DNA of 64,000 nt from Candidatus Levyibacteriota bacterium (GTDB lineage Bacteria > Patescibacteriota > Microgenomatia > Levybacterales > UBA12049), in assembly GCA_016199085.1 (NCBI GenBank), contig JACQHJ010000001.1, positions 72,477-136,476 on the forward strand, given 5' to 3'. This document shows, piece by piece, positions 3,305-39,794 of the stretch. The notes below the pieces were generated by a model, which was given only the letters and a program-made list of their open reading frames with translations, made no database searches and was not told the origin of the DNA. Numbering within the stretch: the first letter of the stretch is position 1; the number at the start of each line of letters is the position of its first letter. The translations under genes and the position numbers were made by a program.

Positions 3305-4749
3305 ATTCTTGGGAATAGAGATTTTTGTAAGGCTATATCGGTCTTTGTAAATTGGTCGACAATTTTCTTTGCGGTTTGCGGCATAAAAGGCTCAAGTAAA
3401 ATACCAATTTCCACAATCTGATCTACAGCGTGGGCGAGAATTGCCGACAATTCTCTTCCTTTGTGATTGGTTGAGACCTTTAGAAGTTCCCAGGGTTTTT
3501 CCTCATTTATGAATTTATCCAATTTTGTAATTTTTTGAAAAACAAGGCTTAGTGCTTCATTGAACCTAAATTCATCCAATGCTTTTTTATAGTCTTCAAT
3601 AATGTCTATGAAATGGAAATTTTTCTCTCCGGCAAGTGTTTTAAATCCCGAAGTCTCGCATAGCTTACTAACTCTTGCGATTAAATTTCCAAGTCCGTTT
3701 GCCAAATCTGCGTTATAAACTTGCCTAAACTTTTCTTCTGAGAAATCTCCATCACTAAAAGGAGAAAATTTGGAAAGACAGTAATAGCGAAGAGCGTCTG
3801 CTCCGTATTTTTCTATTAAAACACTTGGGTCAATAACGTTTCCTAAACTTTTAGACATTTTCTGTCCGTTAACCGTAAAGTATTCATGGACAAAGATTTT
3901 TTTGGGTAAGAAAAGTCCGGCCGAGATTAAAAATGCAGGCCAATAAACGGCGTGGAATCTGATTATTCCTTTCCCGATAACATGAAGATCTGCTGGCCAC
4001 CATTTTTTATAAAGATTTTCATCGGATCCAAATCCAACCGCTGTTTGGTAAATGTTTAAAGCGTCAAACCAGACATAAACTTTTTGTGTCGGATCGTTAG
4101 GGACCGGAACTCCCCAGTTTTTTGCCCTTTCATTTGATCTTGAAATACTTATATCTTCAAGACCCTTTTTAACAAAGGAGAGCATTTCGTTTCTTCTAAA
4201 GTCAGGAACTATTTCAAGCTCGTTTGATTCAATTAGTTTTAAGATTTTATCAGTATAGTTTGAGAGTTTGAAAAAATAGTTTTCTTCGCTTACTTCTTCA
4301 AGTGGTTTTCCCGGGTGTTCATGGCACTCTCCGTTTTCATCAAGTTCTTCTTTGGTATAAAACTGCTCGCATCCTACGCAATAAAGACCTTTATACGATT
4401 TCTTATAAATATCTTTTTGACAAAGTTGCCAAAGTTTCTGGGAGGATTTGATGTGTTTTTCTTCGCTTCCTTTGACTATGCTGTCAAATTTAATACCAAG
4501 TTTTTCCCAAAGATCCAAAAAAAGCTTTCCGTTTTTATCAACCAGCTCCTGAACGGTTATTCTTTCTTCTTCTGCAGCCTGGACATTTTTTAAAGAGTTT
4601 TCGTCATAGCCACATGACAAAAAAACGTCTTTTCCAAGAGTTTTTTGATACCTTGCAATCGTGTCTGATTGAATAAATTCAAGCGCATGGCCCAGGTGGG
4701 GCCTAAAATTCACGTATGGTATTGCGTTTGTAATATAGTATTTGTTCAT
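3301..4749 (-). CDS. metG: methionyl-tRNA synthetase, compact form
   Basis: HIGH-type motif PHLGHALE near the N-terminus and KMSKSLGNVI; 482 aa with no C-terminal appended domain. Confidence 0.9.
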   Translation of the reverse strand: MNKYYITNAIPYVNFRPHLGHALEFIQSDTIARYQKTLGKDVFLSCGYDENSLKNVQAAEEERITVQELVDKNGKLFLDLWEKLGIKFDSIVKGSEEKHIKSSQKLWQLCQKDIYKKSYKGLYCVGCEQFYTKEELDENGECHEHPGKPLEEVSEENYFFKLSNYTDKILKLIESNELEIVPDFRRNEMLSFVKKGLEDISISRSNERAKNWGVPVPNDPTQKVYVWFDALNIYQTAVGFGSDENLYKKWWPADLHVIGKGIIRFHAVYWPAFLISAGLFLPKKIFVHEYFTVNGQKMSKSLGNVIDPSVLIEKYGADALRYYCLSKFSPFSDGDFSEEKFRQVYNADLANGLGNLIARVSKLCETSGFKTLAGEKNFHFIDIIEDYKKALDEFRFNEALSLVFQKITKLDKFINEEKPWELLKVSTNHKGRELSAILAHAVDQIVEIGILLEPFMPQTAKKIVDQFTKTDIALQKSLFPRI

Positions 4750-4788
4750 CGATTGAATTGTAACAAAGATTGCAAGCTAAGGAAAGAA

Positions 4789-5124
4789 TTAATGTTTTCT
4801 AAAAAAGAAAAGTTCAGTTGCTGCAAATAATATAAAAAGCAAAACCAGGAAGAAGGTTTGGTTAAGATTATTTAATCTAAGAATTAAATAAATCAAAGAA
4901 AAAGTAGCAAGAAGTAACCCTTGGATTTTATTTGCAAAAATAAACCAAACGGTTGTCCAAAGAAAAATAAACAAAAGTAAAAAACCAATAGGTATTGCTG
5001 TTATTTTAAGAGAGGAAAAAGAAACAGTTGTATTGGGTGAAAAGGCAAAGACAAGATAGATTAAGCAAATTAAAGAAATAACAGAAAGAACAGGAAGGAT
5101 TAAAAGTTTCTTTCTTTTTCGCAT
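4789..5124 (-). CDS. hypothetical multi-pass small membrane protein
   Basis: 111 aa, almost entirely hydrophobic helices. Confidence 0.35.
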   Translation of the reverse strand: MRKRKKLLILPVLSVISLICLIYLVFAFSPNTTVSFSSLKITAIPIGFLLLFIFLWTTVWFIFANKIQGLLLATFSLIYLILRLNNLNQTFFLVLLFILFAATELFFFRKH

Positions 5125-5227
5125 ATATAAAAGTTTAGCATAAACAAACTTCTTTCAGGCTTTGGAAGTAGGTTTTGTTAACTGTGTTATTAAATGTGCA
5201 GGAATTAATTGAGGTCCAATTTCCCTC

Positions 5228-5265
5228 TTGACAAGATTTTGGCAGTCGTGATATATTACTGCTAA
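5228..5265 (+). promoter_or_regulatory. hrcA promoter (TTGACA-18-TATATT) overlapped by a CIRCE-like inverted repeat TTGGCAGTC-N9-TACTGCTAA
   Basis: Each arm matches the CIRCE consensus TTAGCACTC-N9-GAGTGCTAA at 7 of 9 positions with a compensatory change; it sits about 75 nt upstream of the hrcA start. Confidence 0.45.
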
Positions 5266-5339
5266 CCTGGATACGACGCATTTTCAGTAAGATATATTTG
5301 TAGATCTATACGGGCGCTTATCTGGGTAAAGGATTTATT

Positions 5340-6071
5340 ATGCACGACTTAACGTCTAGACAAGTCGATATTTTAAAAAGTCTCATCGAAGAATATATAG
5401 AGACTGCGGAAGCGGTCGGCTCTGAGACTTTAGAAAAAAAGCATAATTTGTCTGCAAGCCCTGCAACGATTCGAAACGAAATGGTTCGGCTTACAGAGCT
5501 TGGGTACCTTAAAAAACCGCACATCTCGGCTGGTAGAGTTCCGACTCCCTTGGGGATGAGGTTCTACGTCAAGCAGCTGATGAAAGAAAAAGAGCTCTCG
5601 GTTGCAGAAGAAGTCTCATTAAAGGAAAAAGTTTGGGATTTAAGAGAAAAAGAAAGAGTTTTCTTAAAAGAATTAACCAAAACTTTGGCTGAGCGAACAA
5701 AAGCTTTGGCAATAACAACAACCGATGAAGGAGATCTTTTCTGTGCAGGCTATGCAAATGTTTTGGACAATCCGGAGTTTTTGGATATTGATGTAACCAA
5801 GAATTTATTATCGGCAGTTGACGAATTTGAATATTTCAAGAGCCTGTTTTCAGAACAGGAAGATGATGACGAGATCCATATACTCCTTGGAGAAGATCTT
5901 GGACCAAGATTAAACGGTCCATACGGATTTGTCTATATAAAATACCATACGCCTATGAAGTTAACAGGAAAAGTTGGCGTTTTGGGACCGGCAAGACTTA
6001 ATTATAACTTTGTTGTCCCAACTGTAAGATATTTCGGAGATTTAATAGGAGAGATAGCAAAGGGTTGGTAA
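5340..6071 (+). CDS. hrcA: heat-inducible transcription repressor HrcA
   Basis: N-terminal winged-HTH SRQVDILKSLIEEYIETAEAVGSETL and TIRNEMVRLTELGYL; gene order hrcA-grpE-dnaK. Confidence 0.9.
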   Translation: MHDLTSRQVDILKSLIEEYIETAEAVGSETLEKKHNLSASPATIRNEMVRLTELGYLKKPHISAGRVPTPLGMRFYVKQLMKEKELSVAEEVSLKEKVWDLREKERVFLKELTKTLAERTKALAITTTDEGDLFCAGYANVLDNPEFLDIDVTKNLLSAVDEFEYFKSLFSEQEDDDEIHILLGEDLGPRLNGPYGFVYIKYHTPMKLTGKVGVLGPARLNYNFVVPTVRYFGDLIGEIAKGW

Positions 6072-6072
6072 A

Positions 6073-6501
6073 ATGAAAAAAAATGAAAAGAAAATCGATA
6101 CAAATGAATTTGAGAACCTTGAAAATCAACTAAAAAGGGCATTGGCTGACTATCAAAACTTGGAAAAAAGGATAGCAGGTGAAAAAAGCGAGTGGATTAA
6201 GTTATCTAATAAGGATTTACTGCTTAGACTTTTACCCGGACTTGACAGTTTGCTTTTAGCCGAGAAACATACCCAAGATGATGGAGTTAAAGTTTCAATA
6301 AGACACTTTTTGGATATTTTGGAACAAGAAGGTGTCAAAAAAATTGAAACAGAGGGGAAAGATTTTGACCCTAAAGCAATGGAAGCGGTTTCAACAAGAG
6401 TTGGAGAAGAAGGAAAGGTAGTAGAAGAGTTAAGAGCAGGATATACGCTTTTTGACTTGGTACTTAGACCAGCGCAAGTAATAGTAGGAAGCAAAAGTTA
6501 A
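6073..6501 (+). CDS. grpE: nucleotide exchange factor GrpE (short, 142 aa)
   Basis: LLPGLDSL, FDPKAMEAV and GYTLFDLVLRPAQVIV conserved blocks; operon context. Confidence 0.85.
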   Translation: MKKNEKKIDTNEFENLENQLKRALADYQNLEKRIAGEKSEWIKLSNKDLLLRLLPGLDSLLLAEKHTQDDGVKVSIRHFLDILEQEGVKKIETEGKDFDPKAMEAVSTRVGEEGKVVEELRAGYTLFDLVLRPAQVIVGSKS

Positions 6502-6568
6502 AAGCGAAAAGTTTAGAAATATTTTGAATTTTTCATTTTTAATTTTATAATATAGAAAGAAATAAATT

Positions 6569-8488
6569 ATGGGAAAAATAATTGGAATTGATTTAGGTAC
6601 AACAAACAGCGCTGTTGCGGTAATGGAGGGAGGAACTCCCAAAATTATACATTCTGCTGAAGGGCGTAATGTTATTCCATCGGTAGTTGATCCGATATCT
6701 CATGTCGTGGGAGACGTTGCTAAAAGACAAATTGTCTTAAAGCCTAAAACGACAGTCTTTTCCATAAAGAGACTGATGGGAAGGAAATTTAATGATGATT
6801 CGGTTCAGTTTGATATTAAATGGCTTCCCTATACAATCAAAGCCGGAAGAGACGGAATGGCCGATGTCGAAGTTGACGGAAGAACATTTACTCCTCAGGA
6901 AATTTCCGCAATGATATTGCAAAAGATAAAATCCGATGCAGAGGCGTACCTTGGAAGCAAAGTTACTCAAGCTGTTATCACAGTCCCAGCATATTTTGAT
7001 GACAGTCAAAGACAAGCTACAAAACAGGCTGGTGAAATCGCAGGACTTGAAGTATTAAGAATCATAAACGAACCAACAGCAGCGGCTTTGGCCTATGGCC
7101 TTGATAAGAAAAATGCCCATACAATTGCAGTCTATGATCTAGGCGGCGGAACTTTTGATATCTCAATTTTGGAACTTGGAGAAGGAGTCTACCAGGTAAA
7201 ATCAACAAACGGAGACACCCATCTTGGTGGAGACGATTTTGATCAGACAATAATAGATTATTTGGCCGAAGAATTCAAAAAAGAAAACGGTATTGATCTT
7301 AGGAAAGATCCACAAGCGCTTCAAAGACTTAGAGAATCTGCTGAAAAAGCAAAGATAGAATTGTCTTCATCTCAGGAAGCACAAATTAACCAACCCTTTA
7401 TCACCCAAGGCGAAGGCGGAACGCCACTTCATCTAACAATGACTTTAACCAGAGCAAAGCTTGAGCAAATAGTTGATCCCTTGATTCAAAAAACACTTAA
7501 ACCTGTAGAGCTTGCGTTAAAAGATGCAAAAATTAAAGTTTCGGATATTGACGAAATCGTAATGGTAGGCGGAATGACGAGAATGCCAAAGGTCTTAGAA
7601 ACCGTTACCAAGTTTTTCGGCAAAGAGTCAAACAAATCAGTCAATCCGGACGAAGTAGTTGCAATCGGAGCTGCAATCCAGGGGGGAGTTTTAGGAGGAG
7701 AAGTCAAGGATGTATTACTTTTAGACGTTACTCCTCTAACGCTTGGTATTGAAACCTTGGGTAGTGTATCAACTCCTTTAATTGAGAGAAATACAACTAT
7801 TCCAACTTCCAAATCTCAGGTTTTTTCTACAGCAGCTGACAATCAAACACAGGTAGAAATAAATGTACTGCAGGGGGAGCGACCAATGGCAGCTGATAAT
7901 AAATCCCTTGGAAGGTTTGTTCTAGACGGAATTCCACCTGCTCAAAGGGGTGTTCCTCAAATTGAAGTTGCATTTGATCTTGATGCTTCTGGAATATTAA
8001 ATGTAAAAGCAACCGATAAGGCAACTGGTAAAGAGCAAAGCATTAAAATAACAGGATCAACTGGTTTAACCAAAGAAGAAGTTGAGAAGATGACCAAAGA
8101 GGCTGAAGTTCATGCCGCAGAAGATGCACAGAAACGCGAAAAAATTGAAGCAAGAAACCAAGCAGACAGTCTTATCTTTACTGCCGAGAAATCACTCAAA
8201 GACGCAGGAGACAAAGTAACAGAAGAAGTTAAAAGCCAGGTTGAAGAGAAAGTCTCTGCACTAAAGGGGATTTTAGATTCAGGTTCTAAAGAAGATTTGG
8301 AAGCAAAAACCAAAGAGCTTTCAGATGCATTGCAAAAAGTAGGACAGGCTATGTATCAAAAACCAGGACAACAACCAGATGCTCAGGCTTCAGATGCAGC
8401 CGAGCCTAAGCCGGATGGAGAAGCTTCAAAAGACAGTGGGGAAAGTTCTAAAAAAGAAGAACCTGTTGAAGGAGAAGTAGTTAACTAA
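6569..8488 (+). CDS. dnaK: molecular chaperone DnaK (Hsp70)
   Basis: [21 protein letters not shown] and EKAKIELSS signatures; 639 aa. Confidence 0.97.
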
Positions 8489-8902
8489 ATGAAAAATTTA
8501 AAAACCGAGATTCTAGCACTTGCAAACTATGCAGATTTCTCAAAAGATGGAAAGCTAAGCATTATAGGAATTTTTGATCGTATATTCACTAAGGAAACTC
8601 CAAGCTCGTTTATTAGAGGTTTTTTGGTTTTTAGTATTTCCGGTGGGGAAAATAATTCAAAGCATCTCATTACGGTAATAATTAAAGATAGTTCAGGAAA
8701 AATAATACTTGAGAAAAAAGTAGAGATAGTTATGGGCTCTTCAGGTAAGGGAAATTTTATAGCAGAATTAGTTGGTCTTCCCTTGCCTGTATTTGGAGAA
8801 TATAAGGTTATTTTAAAAACACTTGAAAAGGAAATTGGAAACATAAATTTTTTTGTTACACTTCCTGATCAAGTAGTAAATAATACCCCACCCGTTAATT
8901 AG
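8489..8902 (+). CDS. hypothetical protein translationally coupled to dnaK (TAAATG)
   Basis: Its start overlaps the dnaK stop; 137 aa, no recognisable domain. Confidence 0.5.
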   Translation: MKNLKTEILALANYADFSKDGKLSIIGIFDRIFTKETPSSFIRGFLVFSISGGENNSKHLITVIIKDSSGKIILEKKVEIVMGSSGKGNFIAELVGLPLPVFGEYKVILKTLEKEIGNINFFVTLPDQVVNNTPPVN

Positions 8903-8937
8903 TTATATAGTTTATATTTTACACATAAAAGGGAGAC

Positions 8938-9825
8938 ATGAATTACGAGCGTTATAGAAGCGAAGCTTCAGACATTAATTTTTTTGGGAGATTAGAAGGA
9001 TCTATTGATTCTCCTTTTGTTTCTGCAGAAGTTGTTGATTTATCTAAAAAAAATTGGCAAAAGAGCGATTTTCAGTTAGCAAAATGGCATGTGCATGCAG
9101 AAGATCATGTAACATATCAATCCAATAAAGGTTTAGTTCATTTTAAATCCAGGAATCAGGATGGTATTTATGAGGTTTTATATGAACCCGTTGCTTATGA
9201 ATTGGGTAAAAAGTATCTTGGTCTTGACTATCCTGCGACAACAGCCAGTTATTTTTTTAATAATAATACATTGATTATAGGAACACTTTCTCATGCCTTT
9301 TTTACCCAAACTCTTCATACGGCTTCATCAGTATTTCAATCCGTTTTTTTCAAAAGATTAGATCCTTATTCATTTTTGGGTGAAACAGTTGCTGCGATTT
9401 GGTACAGAAATTGGGATTGGTTAGGAGAAAAATATGATAGTGTAATTTTTGGCCAAAATCTTTCTGGTTCATCGGCCTATTATATTATTGATAGAACTCA
9501 TATATTCAAAGGACCAAGGGGAGATATAAGCCAAGATCAATTAAAGAATTATGAAATTAATAATGTGTGGTGGTGGAATAAAAATAATTCAAAAATTAAA
9601 TTAGAAAATTGTCTCCCTTTTGTTAAAAAGATAGAACGGATTCCCGATGAGGTTATAAAGGCAATATGTCTAAAATGGGCAGATAAGATTGGAGAAATTG
9701 ATAATATTAATAAAAACAGATATCTGCGAATGGCGGAAGATTTAGCAAGCTATTTAATAGGCAATAAATGGCTAGTAAGACAAGAGCTTAGCGCATACTT
9801 TAATCATGGAATTCTCTCAATTTAG
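8938..9825 (+). CDS. hypothetical protein (295 aa) between dnaK and dnaJ
   Basis: Long ORF with no recognisable motif; followed by a terminator. Confidence 0.5.
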   Translation: MNYERYRSEASDINFFGRLEGSIDSPFVSAEVVDLSKKNWQKSDFQLAKWHVHAEDHVTYQSNKGLVHFKSRNQDGIYEVLYEPVAYELGKKYLGLDYPATTASYFFNNNTLIIGTLSHAFFTQTLHTASSVFQSVFFKRLDPYSFLGETVAAIWYRNWDWLGEKYDSVIFGQNLSGSSAYYIIDRTHIFKGPRGDISQDQLKNYEINNVWWWNKNNSKIKLENCLPFVKKIERIPDEVIKAICLKWADKIGEIDNINKNRYLRMAEDLASYLIGNKWLVRQELSAYFNHGILSI

Positions 9826-9854
9826 AAGATTATAATCCCAAAACTAAAAAAGAA

Positions 9855-9876
9855 AGCGCGTAATACGCGCTTTTAT
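9855..9876 (+). terminator. rho-independent terminator (AGCGCG-UAAUA-CGCGCU plus U-tract)
   Basis: Perfect 6-bp GC stem followed by TTTT. Confidence 0.5.
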
Positions 9877-9892
9877 AATATAATAAAAGCCT

Positions 9893-10780
9893 ATGGCAGA
9901 CAAAGATTATTATTCAATTCTTGGTGTTTCAAAATCAGCAAGCGCAGAAGATATTAAAAAAGCATATAGAAAGCTTGCACTTCAGTATCATCCTGATAGA
10001 AATAAAGGGAAAGAGTCTGAGGATAAATTTAAAGAAGTGACTAAAGCTTATGAGGTTTTATCTGATCCTTCAAAGAGACAAACCTACGATCAATTCGGAG
10101 AAGCTGCTTTCCAACAAGGCGGGCCTGGCGCAGGAGGACCTTTTGGAGGAGGATTTCAAGGACAAGGCGGACAATACGGACCCTTTACTTATACATATAC
10201 AACAGGAGGTAATGCGGGTGGTTTTGACTTCGGTGGATTTTCAGACCCCTTTGATATCTTTGAACAGTTCTTTGGAGGAGCAAATCCATTCAGTAGGACT
10301 CAAAGAAGGCCTACTTATGCACTTTCAATTTCCTTTATGGATGCTATAAACGGAGCAACAAAGAAAGTTAATTTAGGAGGAAAAACTCAAACTATTAAAA
10401 TCCCGGCAGGAGTTGATAGTGGATCAAGAATAAGATTTGGAGATTCCGAAGTCATAATTGAAGTAGAGCCTCATAGGAAATTTCAAAGACAGGGATATGA
10501 TATCGTAACCGAGGAAGAAATATCTTTTCCGAAAGCAGCATTAGGAGATGAGCTGGAAGTTGAAACGGTACAGGGAAATGTAAGAATAAAAATTCCTGCA
10601 GGTACTCAGCCGGAAACTGTGATTAGATTAAGAGGAAAAGGAGTAAGAATGTTAAGGGGGTCAGGTCATGGGGATCATTACGTAAGAATAAAGGTAACTG
10701 TCCCCAAAAACCTAACAGGACATCAAAGAGAGATTTTGAAAGAATTTGAAGAAGGTAAGAAAAAATCTAGCTGGTTTTAA
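9893..10780 (+). CDS. dnaJ: DnaJ-family co-chaperone with a J domain and G/F region but no CxxCxGxG zinc finger (type II/CbpA-like)
   Basis: DYYSILGV...YHPDRNKG J-domain, a Gly/Phe-rich linker and a C-terminal beta domain; no Cys repeats. Confidence 0.8.
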
Positions 10781-10794
10781 TTTATAATTAAAAA

Positions 10795-11220
10795 ATGATA
10801 TATATCTTTTTAGGATTAGTTTTTTATACATCGTTGCTTCTTATTGGAACATTTGCTTCTAGAATGGCAAATACAAATTTGGTTTCTGCGATTGTCAGTT
10901 TATTTTCTGCAATTATCCCAACACTTGTTGCAATACCGCTTTTAAATAAGGCAACAATTGAAAATCAAAGAATAGGAGTAATGGCTGCTATAATAGCAGG
11001 TCTTATTGTCGGCCTTTTTACTTTGGTTTTAAATAAAAGTTTAGCTGTAAATAAAGTAGGTATCGTTATTCCAATTATCTTTGGTGGATCAATATTTTTA
11101 TCAACAATACTAAGTTATTTTATTTTTAAAGAAAAAGTAAGTTTAATGCATGGAATTGGCCTTGGTTTTTTAGGGATTGGGATTTTAATCATAACCTACG
11201 TAAAGTTTGTTGAAAAATAA
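10795..11220 (+). CDS. four-TM small membrane protein (EamA/SMR-like half transporter)
   Basis: 141 aa with four hydrophobic helices. Confidence 0.4.
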   Translation: MIYIFLGLVFYTSLLLIGTFASRMANTNLVSAIVSLFSAIIPTLVAIPLLNKATIENQRIGVMAAIIAGLIVGLFTLVLNKSLAVNKVGIVIPIIFGGSIFLSTILSYFIFKEKVSLMHGIGLGFLGIGILIITYVKFVEK

Positions 11221-11241
11221 AAATCAGTCTTTGTTTGTAAT

Positions 11242-11595
11242 TTGTCCTCAATCTTATATACTAAATATATGTACAGACTGCCTTTTGACCTTGTTAAATT
11301 TTGGTATGTAGAAGCGCCTCTTTCTTTAATCAGTTTTTTCGGCATTGTTAATAAGCAATTTTTAACTCTTTTTTCTCTTCCCCTGATGCTTAAGACTTTT
11401 TTCAGGCCCTGGAAGAATGAATACAGGGAAGGCTTGGTGGGATTTTCTATCTTTATGGGAATTGCATTTAAAACTCTCTTTATCCTTATAGATTTGGTTA
11501 TCCTGGCTTTTCTAATAGTATCAGAAGCTATATTATTTGTCTGGTTTTTGGCGTTTCCGGCAGTTATTGTTTATCTATTTTTAATTAAACTATGA
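11242..11595 (+). CDS. hypothetical membrane protein
   Basis: 117 aa, hydrophobic. Confidence 0.35.
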   Translation: MSSILYTKYMYRLPFDLVKFWYVEAPLSLISFFGIVNKQFLTLFSLPLMLKTFFRPWKNEYREGLVGFSIFMGIAFKTLFILIDLVILAFLIVSEAILFVWFLAFPAVIVYLFLIKL

Positions 11596-13961
11596 AATTT
11601 TACGCAAGACTTTATTCTTTCTACAACAGCTTAGTTATTAAGCTTTGTAGGGCTTTCTTACTTATCGCTCTAATTCCTCTTTCCTTTCTTTCCTTAACTG
11701 ACTTACTTTATCCAAACTTTATAATTGCGGTTTTGTCGATTTTTCTAATCTTTGAAATATTTTTTAAGTTTAAGGTTGAAAGACTAATGCCTAGGGTTTT
11801 GGTATCAGAAAACAGCGATGATCCGCTTAATTCATTTACGCTTTTGGCATTAAGCTCATTTTTAACAAGCTCCAATACCCAAAAACTAATTGAAAATCTT
11901 TTAAATAAACCTCAGGTTAAGTTCATTTTGGAAAAAGCAGATATTGAAAGAAAGCAGTTAAAGCTGGTCGATATAGATAAAAATGAGCTTGCCAAAGAAG
12001 CACTTCATGTTGCAAAGCAGGCAAACGGAAAATACGTTACAACCATGGATTTAATCACCTCCCATCTTTTGTTATCTGAATCCCAGACAAAACTTTTGTT
12101 TTCCAAAAAACTAAAGCCTGAGGATCTGGAAGCAATTTTAATCTGGGCCAGAAACAGATATAAAAAAGAGGAAAATCCAAAGCGCACTCATCTTTTCTGG
12201 GGAGAAGGAATTGCCGAAGACTGGGTCTATGGCTGGACAAATGAAACGCAAAAATACATGCTTGATCTAACCTCCCAATTTATCAACAAAAAGAAAAACG
12301 CAATCGGGCGAATAAACGAATATAATCAATTACTCGAAAGTTTATATGCAGGCAAAAGCACTATTCTGGTGGGAGAGTCGGGAAGCGGTAAGACGGCGGT
12401 TGTTGAGCATTTGGCAAGAGAAAGCTTTACTGGTCTTTTATCAAAAAACCTTTTCCACCAAAGAATATTTCAATTAATGGTAGATGCTTTTATGGCAGGA
12501 GCTACAACGCAGGGCGAACTTGAACAAAGGCTTGATAATATTATCCAAGAGGTGTCTCACAGTGGGAACATCATAGTTTTCATTCCAAATATTGATAATA
12601 TCCTTGGGAATTCAAGCTTTAACTTAAATATCTCCGGAGCATTAATTCCTTATATTAAAAACGGCAATATCAGGATTATCGCAACTGCAACCCCAGCTTC
12701 TTTTAAAAAATATGTCGAGGCAAATCCTTCATTTATGGAAAACTTCTCGGTCATTAAGTTTGAGAATCTTGACAGGGCAAAAGTACTTGAAATCCTGTTT
12801 AGAAAAGCATCTTTTATAGAAGAAAAAACCAAAACGGTTTTAACCTATAAGGCAATACTTTCCAGCTTTAACTTTGCCAATTCATATATCAAGGAAAAAG
12901 TTCTTCCCGGAAGCGCAGTCATTCTACTTGAGGATACGGCAAACGCAGTTTCACTCTCCGGAAAGGCAATAGTTGAGGAACAAAATGTTGAGGAACAAAT
13001 AACAAAGAAAGTGCATATGAATGTCGGAGAGCCAAAACAGGTAGAGAAAAATCTTCTCTTAAATCTCGAAAAGCAAATGCATTTAAGAGTAATAGGTCAA
13101 GACGAAGCCGTCTCAACGATATCTGAGGCTATTAGAAGAGTAAGGGCAGGACTTAAAACTTCCCAAAAACCCATCTCATTTTTGTTTTTGGGGCCAACAG
13201 GAGTTGGTAAAACAGAAACGGCAAAAGCTTTGGCGCAGAGTTATTTCGGAGACGATAAAAAAATGATCAGGCTTGATATGAGTGAGTTCTCAGGAATTGA
13301 CGGAGAGAAAAGACTATTGGGAGCTCCTCCTGGTCAGGGAGATGAAAAAGGACAACTAACAGAAAGTATTTATGACAATCCATATTCAATGGTTTTACTT
13401 GATGAGTTTGAAAAAGCAGATCAAAAAATCCTTGATTTGTTTTTACAGGTGTTTGACGATGGAAGACTGACTGATAATAAAGGAAAGACAGTTTCATTTA
13501 TAAACTCTGTTATTATTGCAACTTCAAATGCAGCCTCAGAATATATTAGAGAACAAATTGGTAAAGGAGTAAAAGTAGACGGGAGTTTTTACAGCCAGCT
13601 GTTGGAATATTTACAAACCAAGCAAATATTTAAACCTGAGCTTTTAAACAGATTTGACGCAATTATTGTCTTTAAGCCACTTAATCAGGCTCAAATCCAA
13701 CAAATTGTTAAAATACTTCTAACTGAATTTACAAATAGACTTAAAGAGAAAGACATTGTAGCTTCATTTGATGAAAAGATAGTAGCAAAAATTGCAAATG
13801 AGGGGTTTGATAAGGATTTTGGAGCAAGACCCTTAAGAAGATTTATTCAGGACAACATTGAAGATTTAATTGCCCAGAAAATGTTAAAAGATGAGATTAA
13901 AAGGGGAGATAAGATTTTAATTTCAGTAGACACAAATGGCAATATTGAGATAAACAAATAA
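11592..13961 (+). CDS. Hsp100/Clp-family double AAA+ ATPase with an N-terminal TM anchor, no M-domain and a degenerate D1 Walker B / Arg finger
   Basis: D1 Walker A GESGSGKT; the position of the ClpB Walker B reads IIVFIPNID rather than hhhhDE; D2 has GPTGVGKTETAKALA and LLDEFEKAD. The first ~65 residues are hydrophobic. Confidence 0.85.
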   Translation: MKFYARLYSFYNSLVIKLCRAFLLIALIPLSFLSLTDLLYPNFIIAVLSIFLIFEIFFKFKVERLMPRVLVSENSDDPLNSFTLLALSSFLTSSNTQKLIENLLNKPQVKFILEKADIERKQLKLVDIDKNELAKEALHVAKQANGKYVTTMDLITSHLLLSESQTKLLFSKKLKPEDLEAILIWARNRYKKEENPKRTHLFWGEGIAEDWVYGWTNETQKYMLDLTSQFINKKKNAIGRINEYNQLLESLYAGKSTILVGESGSGKTAVVEHLARESFTGLLSKNLFHQRIFQLMVDAFMAGATTQGELEQRLDNIIQEVSHSGNIIVFIPNIDNILGNSSFNLNISGALIPYIKNGNIRIIATATPASFKKYVEANPSFMENFSVIKFENLDRAKVLEILFRKASFIEEKTKTVLTYKAILSSFNFANSYIKEKVLPGSAVILLEDTANAVSLSGKAIVEEQNVEEQITKKVHMNVGEPKQVEKNLLLNLEKQMHLRVIGQDEAVSTISEAIRRVRAGLKTSQKPISFLFLGPTGVGKTETAKALAQSYFGDDKKMIRLDMSEFSGIDGEKRLLGAPPGQGDEKGQLTESIYDNPYSMVLLDEFEKADQKILDLFLQVFDDGRLTDNKGKTVSFINSVIIATSNAASEYIREQIGKGVKVDGSFYSQLLEYLQTKQIFKPELLNRFDAIIVFKPLNQAQIQQIVKILLTEFTNRLKEKDIVASFDEKIVAKIANEGFDKDFGARPLRRFIQDNIEDLIAQKMLKDEIKRGDKILISVDTNGNIEINK

Positions 13962-39412: not shown

Positions 39413-39720
39413 TAATAAATTGCAAGTAGAAATGTAACTTAAATTACCACAATTAAAATATGACTCTTATGTAGTTTGGGCAGGTAAAAATAGTAAAAGA
39501 GACTTATAGGAAATTGCTATAGTTAGGTTAACTTTTGTTTTAGTTTGAAATAGTTATTTGAGGCTATAAAGTATTCAAATATTCGTTTGACAAACCAAGC
39601 GACTTGGATAATTATACATATGTATAAGTAATTTCTTCATATCTTGAAGAAATTTACACAGGGTGTTATAATTGCAGTCCTTTGTACTGCCCCTAAGTAC
39701 ATTAAAATTGAATTTATCAC

Positions 39721-39794
39721 AAAGCCGACGAGATTCGAACTCGTAACCTTCCCGTTAGTAGCAGGTTGCTCTGTCCAGTTGAGCTACGGCTTTG
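39721..39794 (-). tRNA. tRNA gene with a short variable loop, no encoded CCA, and a hand-folded anticodon loop CU-ACU-AA
   Basis: Minus-strand AAAGCCG-UA-GCUC-AACUGGACA-GAGC-A-ACCUG-CUACUAA-CGGGA-AGGUU-ACGAG-UUCGAAU-CUCGU-CGGCUUU-G. Acceptor, D and T arms are canonical; the anticodon stem has an A-A mismatch. Confidence 0.6.

Follow-up and report, generated by a model that had tools for sequence, protein, structure and literature searches.

In the 64,000-nucleotide stretch of a Candidatus Levyibacteriota genome analysed here (the window; GCA_016199085.1, contig JACQHJ010000001.1, positions 72,477 to 136,476), two additional genes, ORF137 and ORF295 (open reading frames of 137 and 295 codons), lie between dnaK and dnaJ of the hrcA-grpE-dnaK-dnaJ heat-shock operon. 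The DnaK-DnaJ-GrpE operon is among the best-studied and most conserved bacterial gene clusters. This layout, described in an original prediction made from the letters alone, was confirmed on the plus strand, and the two products are identical to NCBI HY344_00445 and HY344_00450 of a Candidatus Levybacteria metagenome-assembled genome. The features of the locus, numbered from the first letter of the window, are as follows.

5228-5257, plus strand: sigma-70-like promoter (TTGACA-18 nt-TATATT with a TG extension) upstream of hrcA, a consensus match only
5239-5265, plus strand: variant of the controlling inverted repeat of chaperone expression (CIRCE), a CIRCE-like inverted repeat TTGGCAGTC-N9-TACTGCTAA that overlaps the -10 element and has 4 mismatches to canonical CIRCE
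5340-6071, plus strand: hrcA, 243 aa, with Pfam HrcA (1.8e-14) and HrcA_DNA-bdg
6073-6501, plus strand: grpE, 142 aa, with Pfam GrpE (2.1e-31)
6569-8488, plus strand: dnaK, 639 aa, stop codon TAA at 8486-8488
8489-8902, plus strand: ORF137, encoding a DUF6941 protein of 137 aa, start codon abutting the dnaK stop codon
8930-8935, plus strand: putative Shine-Dalgarno (SD)-like AGGGAG, read from the sequence, in the 35-nt spacer between ORF137 and ORF295
8938-9825, plus strand: ORF295, encoding an atypical protein-kinase-like protein of 295 aa from an uncatalogued family, with the putative catalytic set Lys70, Glu83, Asp160, Lys165 and Asp185
9852-9874, plus strand: GC-rich hairpin GAAAGCGCGU-AAU-ACGCGCUUUU, a perfect inverted repeat between ORF295 and dnaJ
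9893-10780, plus strand: dnaJ, class B (type II), with Pfam DnaJ and DnaJ_C only, comprising an HPD J domain, a Gly/Phe-rich linker and C-terminal domains

The ORF137 start codon had been described as overlapping the dnaK stop codon; instead, in the string TAAATG at 8486-8491 the ATG directly follows the TAA with a spacer of 0 nt, and both genes share one frame. An SD-like GGAG upstream of ORF137 is contained in the final dnaK codons (GAA GGA GAA GTA GTT AAC TAA), and the tight spacing between dnaK and the DUF6941 gene is consistent with translational coupling. A readthrough fusion of DnaK and DUF6941, possible in the window by virtue of the common frame, was rejected as a conserved feature because relatives show offsets of -1, +1 and +2. 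The C-termini of DnaK (related loci L001 to L021; window 8456-8488) end in EEGEVV followed by E, N, S, G or K, with a further EEDKRG extension beyond this motif in L015. Since the EEGEVV codons in relatives double as a purine-rich SD-like sequence for the coupled DUF6941 gene, the motif may be constrained both at the peptide level and as a ribosome-binding site. The DnaJ encoded in the window has 0 Cys, no CxxCxGxG motif and no zinc finger, and DnaJ is of class B at all loci, with the HPD motif present, the zinc finger absent and essentially no cysteine.

Neither inserted gene had been assigned to a recognised family. For ORF137 this did not hold because the protein matches Pfam DUF6941 (PF22091) over its full length, with 58.6 bits (cut-off 27) and an E-value of 1e-15 for residues 7-123 on profile positions 1-124 of 125, and all 12 ORF137 homologues carry a precomputed PF22091 match; for ORF295 the statement was incomplete, as this protein adopts an atypical kinase fold. 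Structure prediction, proposed originally together with Foldseek as a check, was carried out and yielded an immunoglobulin (Ig)-like beta-sandwich for ORF137 and the atypical kinase fold for ORF295. The AlphaFold model of ORF137, obtained from a 13-sequence alignment, had a mean predicted local distance difference test score (pLDDT) of 89.8 and displayed a nine-stranded all-beta domain at residues 5-124, predicted to be an Ig/macroglobulin-like beta-sandwich, followed by a low-confidence, disordered polar tail. Neither a signal peptide nor an obvious catalytic constellation was found in ORF137, and its conserved residues are mainly Gly, Pro and hydrophobic ones, plus K22 and D30. The tails of DUF6941 proteins are polar and of variable length; 12 of 13 lineages end in x-N-COOH, usually P-x-N, and the window protein ends in P-V-N (tail 8864-8899). 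This terminal Asn is kept irrespective of the next gene overlapping the tail, and the Asn tail may be a docking motif. In the literature searched, DUF6941/PF22091 was not mentioned, nor was any Patescibacteria dnaK/hrcA operon or this operon variant.

ORF295 matched no Pfam, NCBIfam, PADLOC or PHROG model and only itself in a word-indexed search of 5.8 billion proteins, and the kinase-family profile retrieved from the word-indexed search only the query and one further protein (P0025). Exhaustive HMMER searching of 1.84 billion representatives, by contrast, detected 11 true relatives with identities of 21-41%. A further HMMER match, P0026, was discarded as spurious, being a proline-rich algal repeat protein, as was the only match of the PDB profile search, a designed helical repeat. 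The AlphaFold model of ORF295 (pLDDT 86.0, predicted TM-score 0.87) points to a bilobal kinase fold, which is backed by two methods. Structural matches of the model were led by CtkA (score 15.4), CotH (15.1) and type II phosphatidylinositol (PI) 4-kinase (13.4-13.6), followed by HipA-family toxins (11.6-12.9), actin-fragmin kinase (12.2) and MavQ (11.4) and, more weakly, by Fam20 (about 10-11) and the PI 3-kinases and PI 3-kinase-related kinases (about 8-11). Foldseek likewise placed CtkA first (E 1.5e-4, probability 1.0, TM-score 0.45) and also listed HipT. At the level of sequence, neither the query nor the 12 members had a HipA_C/HipA_N, CotH (PF08757) or PI3_PI4_kinase (PF00454) Pfam match at E <=1, and hhalign of the kinase-family profile against E. 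coli HipA gave a probability of 0.1%. ORF295 represents a new sequence family of atypical kinase-like proteins.

The conserved residues of this family fall at positions expected for a kinase. K70 lies at the end of the N-lobe strand 65-71 and is invariant in members covering the region, where E83 (E/D) in helix 79-94 is conserved as well; from their secondary-structure positions, the two residues are assigned as the putative pair of ATP-binding Lys and alphaC Glu. In 12 of 12 kinase-family members D160 is kept just past helix 144-156, which precedes the catalytic loop, and D185 is kept behind strands 169-173 and 179-183, at the position equivalent to DFG; the two correspond to the catalytic and the metal-binding Asp, respectively. 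Y182 is invariant too, and K/R is common 4-5 residues past D160 (position 165). The spacing of D160 and D185 is 25 residues, as compared to 23 in HipA (D309-D332). The invariance of K70, E83, D160, Y182 and D185 speaks for a constrained active site rather than a decaying pseudogene, and ORF295 is probably catalytically competent.

Comparison with related loci revealed that the two inserted positions differ in their constancy. The position of DUF6941 was counted only at loci with upstream sequence, with DnaK C-termini confirmed by translation (window, L001/2, L003/4, L006-8, L009/10, L012, L015-17, L019-21 and the P0004 contig), and at every one of these the DUF6941 gene lies directly 3' of dnaK, at -1 to +13 nt. 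This linkage spans DUF6941 identities down to about 25-30%. The kinase gene was found in the order dnaK-DUF6941-kinase in six of six contexts (window, L009/L010, L018, L019, L020 and L021) and is followed by dnaJ in five of them, the L019 contig stopping past the kinase gene. Among the six contexts the kinase shares 20-38% pairwise identity, as compared to 47-74% for the adjacent DnaJ. A kinase-like gene occupies the same slot at six independent, deeply diverged loci, and the arrangement in the window is not a local accident. Of the predicted conservation of the order dnaK-ORF-ORF-dnaJ, the part concerning the first gene stood, DUF6941 always following dnaK, whereas the second gene is replaced or absent in most relatives. 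In relatives the gene in this second position (slot 2) shares 17-56 nt with the DUF6941 3' end, and its distance to dnaJ ranges from -10 to +31 nt; kinase genes in this position likewise overlap DUF6941, with 0-12 nt separating them from dnaJ. The window is an outlier to this pattern, as 35 nt with a separate AGGGAG lie ahead of ORF295 and 67 nt with the hairpin follow it. The DUF6941 profile matched a single locus in genome contigs, identical to L003, and three loci in metagenome contigs; the kinase profile had no match in the metagenome contigs.

With regard to regulation, co-expression of the inserted genes under HrcA/CIRCE control had been proposed. The promoter upstream of hrcA has 11 of 12 consensus matches and is the best within 4700-11300, and the overlapping palindrome differs from canonical CIRCE (TTAGCACTC-N9-GAGTGCTAA) by symmetric C-to-G and G-to-C changes. 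Chance would give 0 matches in the 64 kb of the window, and this palindrome is the only one there; in L001 the same variant stands immediately behind the -35 element, and L009 has a related one. Canonical CIRCE was not found at <=3 mismatches, and the variant surfaced only in a relaxed scan. Heat-shock co-expression of the operon including the inserted genes is plausible, given that a strong promoter and a CIRCE variant are combined and recur in relatives; the variant palindrome is a probable, putative HrcA operator. The strong GC-hairpin terminator proposed to precede dnaJ was upheld only in part. A stable hairpin is present (10-bp stem, 5 G-C pairs, dG -13.6 kcal/mol, z = -4.0 as compared to shuffles), but its 3' run UUUUAUAAU contains a short U-run (UUUUAU) that is for the most part paired with the A-run upstream, the scan for terminators reported the site on the minus strand only, and the hairpin was not found at any related locus and is specific to the window genome. 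It may act as a partial terminator or as a transcript-stabilising stem-loop. A second promoter-like site, TTGAAT-16-TATAAT, was observed at 6524-6551 on the plus strand in the grpE-dnaK spacer, with 10 of 12 matches and within an AT-rich imperfect palindrome; judged by these motifs, it may be a putative internal dnaK promoter.

We consider the chances about even that ORF137 and ORF295 form a clade-specific accessory module of the DnaK-DnaJ-GrpE operon in Levybacteria-like bacteria of the candidate phyla radiation (CPR). A functional tie to the chaperones is argued for by gene positions: even near sequence saturation, DUF6941 stays next to the dnaK stop codon and the kinase stays between DUF6941 and dnaJ. 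From this gene context we infer a role as chaperone accessory or client factors. DUF6941 would be the constant part of such a module, a cytoplasmic Ig-like beta-sandwich with a flexible tail; the coupling between the dnaK stop codon and its start codon probably keeps its synthesis proportional to that of DnaK. By analogy with known operon-encoded partners, its presumed role is that of a co-factor, adaptor or assembly factor that binds DnaK and/or the class B DnaJ. ORF295 would be the optional part, a predicted active phosphotransferase that would be expressed together with the chaperones, driven by the CIRCE-controlled promoter, and could phosphorylate DnaK, DnaJ, GrpE, DUF6941 or chaperone clients, tuning the chaperone cycle during stress. 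That the kinase has a specific chaperone substrate is, taken on its own, doubtful. Similarly unlikely, in our estimation, is the most far-reaching version, a 'chaperone code' within the Hsp70 operon, in which the kinase would phosphorylate DnaK or class B DnaJ under heat shock, DUF6941 would serve as docking or specificity subunit, and lineages would swap the regulatory slot, holding either the kinase or a small basic protein, by recombination in the flanks. If true, this would be the first case of a bacterial Hsp70 system regulated by an endogenous kinase from its own operon, and DUF6941 would gain a function.

Several observations weigh against an accessory module, and most of them are what would be expected of a selfish or accessory cassette residing in the dnaK-dnaJ operon, in which a HipA/CtkA-like kinase would act as growth-arresting toxin or defence effector, DUF6941 or DnaK as its antagonist or regulator, and the pair would move by flank recombination. 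The nearest bacterial structural relatives of ORF295 include the toxins HipA and HipT and the secreted effector CtkA, and the kinase evolves very fast in comparison with DnaJ. Slot 2 varies in content: at least seven lineages carry an unrelated protein of 102-117 aa instead of the kinase, and in one lineage the slot is empty. The histories of the two genes are discordant, as L009 and L021 share 61% identity in DUF6941 and 20% in the kinase, while the window and L018 share 38% in the kinase and 31% in DUF6941, the window DUF6941 grouping with DUF6941 genes that precede the small ORF (50-56% identity). In L009 (50.7% GC), the GC content at third codon positions (GC3) of the DUF6941 and kinase genes (7598-8858) is about 34% as compared to about 60% for dnaK, dnaJ and most neighbours, which argues for recent acquisition of the pair, and the overall GC of these inserts is near that of toxin-antitoxin genes of related loci (YafQ 37%, PIN 38%). 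Taken together, the discordant histories and the GC3 shift in L009 indicate that the slot behaves like an exchangeable cassette, probably exchanged by recombination in the conserved flanks. One kinase member also had a weak match to PD-T4-6 (E 0.018), but this is not significant after 12 x 5027 comparisons. A toxin or defence cassette nevertheless appears rather unlikely to us. DUF6941 occurs without the kinase in most lineages and is therefore not an obligate antitoxin; an HTH-type (helix-turn-helix) antitoxin was not found, and both genes were encountered solely in the dnaK-dnaJ slot, with no integrase, transposase or repeats flanking them. Relatives among mobile elements, which the original prediction had named as an observation that would speak against it, were looked for and not detected: tblastn against phages and plasmids returned no relatives of either protein, viral contigs were matched by neither the DUF6941 nor the kinase profile, and PADLOC and PHROG models gave no match. 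A foreign origin of the pair in the window was likewise rejected, as its GC3 (21.7 and 22.3) is not anomalous in comparison with dnaK (27.8) and dnaJ (23.0); the lower overall GC of the two genes arises at codon positions 1 and 2. In L009, a 202-aa ORF after dnaJ (9812-10420) has a GC3 of 30.5%, and the low-GC3 island is confined to accessory genes.

A further point against the accessory module concerns the chemistry of ORF295, as the catalytic-loop Asn is not conserved among kinase members, which have H, S, Q or N at position 168 (N in one only) and often D at position 167. Another metal ligand may substitute for this Asn, or the chemistry may be non-canonical. The atypical metal-binding residue also fits an explanation in which ORF295 is heat-shock-co-expressed but acts on a non-chaperone substrate such as a lipid, a small molecule or a cell-envelope or translation protein, with DUF6941 as an independent stress protein and the operon providing timing only. 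The fold group includes lipid kinases (PI4K-II, MavQ) and a sugar kinase (Fam20B) as well as kinases of coat proteins, actin and tRNA synthetase, and in the window, with its hairpin and spacers, the kinase is less tightly coupled than in relatives. We nonetheless regard this explanation as improbable, since a linkage as exclusive as that of the kinase family, found only between DUF6941 and dnaJ in six of six contexts at near-saturated divergence, is unusual for mere co-regulation, and since the kinase gene in relatives is so closely packed with its two neighbours. That the inserts are chance reading frames or decaying pseudogenes, for which the lone self-match of ORF295 in the word-indexed search could be quoted, is effectively refuted and extremely improbable: the 11 true relatives found by exhaustive HMMER share conserved motifs, DUF6941 has its Pfam match and 12 homologues, both proteins fold confidently, and full-length ORFs are kept in the same slot across deep divergence. 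The original prediction of two genuine genes was borne out in this respect.

For the accessory module, parallels may be drawn with operon-encoded partners of Hsp70 systems, although none of DafA, CbpM and LegK4 is homologous to ORF137 or ORF295. Thermus DafA is encoded in the dnaK operon and assembles the DnaK3-DnaJ3-DafA3 complex, from which substrate displaces DafA (PMC3727329). The locus resembles this system in having a small lineage-specific dnaK-operon protein and, as partner, a class B DnaJ without zinc finger, a likeness of context features only, and DafA may thus be a model for a possible role of DUF6941 or of the 102-117-aa slot-2 proteins of relatives. However, DafA is a protein of about 8 kDa encoded 3' of dnaJ, whereas DUF6941 is a 15-kDa beta-sandwich encoded between dnaK and dnaJ, and no relation is expected. 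The class B J-protein CbpA has an operon-encoded modulator, CbpM, which controls the interaction of CbpA with DnaK (PMC4063869). The likeness is again that of a lineage-restricted, operon-encoded small regulator of a class B J-domain protein; by contrast, CbpM has a helical, MerR-like structure, its gene lies downstream of cbpA and its inhibition works via the J domain, while ORF137 is all-beta and coupled to dnaK, and a Pfam match linking the two was not found. In Legionella, phosphorylation of Hsp70 T495 by LegK4 demonstrates that a bacterial kinase can switch Hsp70 directly, via a conserved threonine of the substrate-binding domain (PMC13215673). LegK4, however, is a secreted Hanks-type effector acting on host Hsp70, whereas ORF295 is atypical, endogenous and encoded in the bacterium's own dnaK operon.

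Among the structural relatives of ORF295, Helicobacter pylori CtkA is encoded on the mobile tfs3 element and acts on host cells (PMC5536186). Identity between this atypical Ser/Thr kinase (3akj) and ORF295 is 15-17% at a TM-score of ~0.45, which provides no family link at the sequence level, and unlike the mobile-element-encoded CtkA, ORF295 is chromosomal and part of a chaperone operon. In comparison with HipA and HipT of the HipBA and HipBST systems, ORF295 lacks a HipB-type helix-turn-helix or HipS partner, its upstream partner gene persists without the kinase, and HipA Asn314 corresponds to H, S, N or Q in the ORF295 family. Bacillus CotH (5jda) and type II PI 4-kinase (4pla, 4hnd) share 9-15% identity with ORF295 and function in biological contexts unlike that of ORF295, namely the spore coat and eukaryotic membranes, respectively.

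Accessory proteins in chaperone operons are known as such, while the players found here, and the kinase, are new. DafA, CbpM and HspR are lineage-specific operon proteins each of which revealed a regulatory principle. An ultra-small, genome-reduced CPR clade keeps an extra gene coupled to dnaK, and several of its lineages also keep a kinase family unseen elsewhere, a combination suggestive of a lineage-specific layer, so far undescribed, that assists or regulates the bacterial Hsp70 machine. If the two proteins act on the chaperones, there would be a first clue to what DUF6941 does and a newly defined family of atypical kinases, and endogenous phospho-regulation of a bacterial Hsp70 would become testable with recombinant proteins. 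If they instead form a selfish cassette, the situation would be an unusual one, in which an essential operon serves accessory genes as safe harbour and recombination anchor.

The small proteins of slot 2 form a family of their own, members of which are encoded at the following positions of related loci.

L001, 6395-6721; L003, 3076-3384; L005, 440-778; L014, 471-824
L015, 1750-2070; L016, 475-810; L017, 495-833

They differ at the N-terminus and share a conserved central motif of a beta-hairpin and a helix (…F/Y-x-G-[DNS]-x-[ED]-E/K-A…), a stretch rich in Lys and Arg, and an amphipathic or transmembrane helix at the C-terminus, and in all members the gene overlaps the DUF6941 3' end. No Pfam match was found for this family. 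The idea that these ORFs are remnants or domains of the kinase was rejected, and they are considered unrelated to it because BLASTP was null and hhalign gave a probability of 0.2%. The contig of L003/L011 (GCA_964411775.1, CAYPLU010000016.1) carries the public label 'uncultured Gammaproteobacteria bacterium'. Its hrcA-less synteny grpE-dnaK-DUF6941-small ORF-class B dnaJ-nusA-infB, together with a DnaJ 57% identical to that of the window, suggests from sequence comparison that it is of CPR/Microgenomates origin and probably mis-binned or mislabelled.

Downstream of the operon, about 800 nt past dnaJ, a two-ring Clp/Hsp100 ATPase of 789 aa (AAA, AAA_2, ClpB_D2-small) is encoded at 11592-13961 on the plus strand; its first ~60-70 residues are strongly hydrophobic with two transmembrane-like segments, as opposed to the soluble Clp N-domain expected. 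Two small membrane ORFs, at 10795-11220 and 11242-11595, precede the clp gene, one being EamA-like and the other overlapping the clp start by 4 nt. This chaperone-disaggregase neighbourhood recalls the Thermus dnaK-grpE-dnaJ-dafA-clpB arrangement, and it is unlike related loci, where dnaJ is directly followed by nusA-infB. Elsewhere in the window, the sole tRNA (39719-39794, minus strand; 76 nt; Rfam tRNA, 58 bits) is called as a tRNA-Ser with the anticodon ACT. Both A34 and the missing long variable arm are unusual for a bacterial tRNA-Ser. An S-adenosylmethionine (SAM)-I/IV riboswitch aptamer is located at 2266-2365 on the minus strand (55.6 bits; gathering threshold 41.1), upstream of the minus-strand ORF at 1155-2249.

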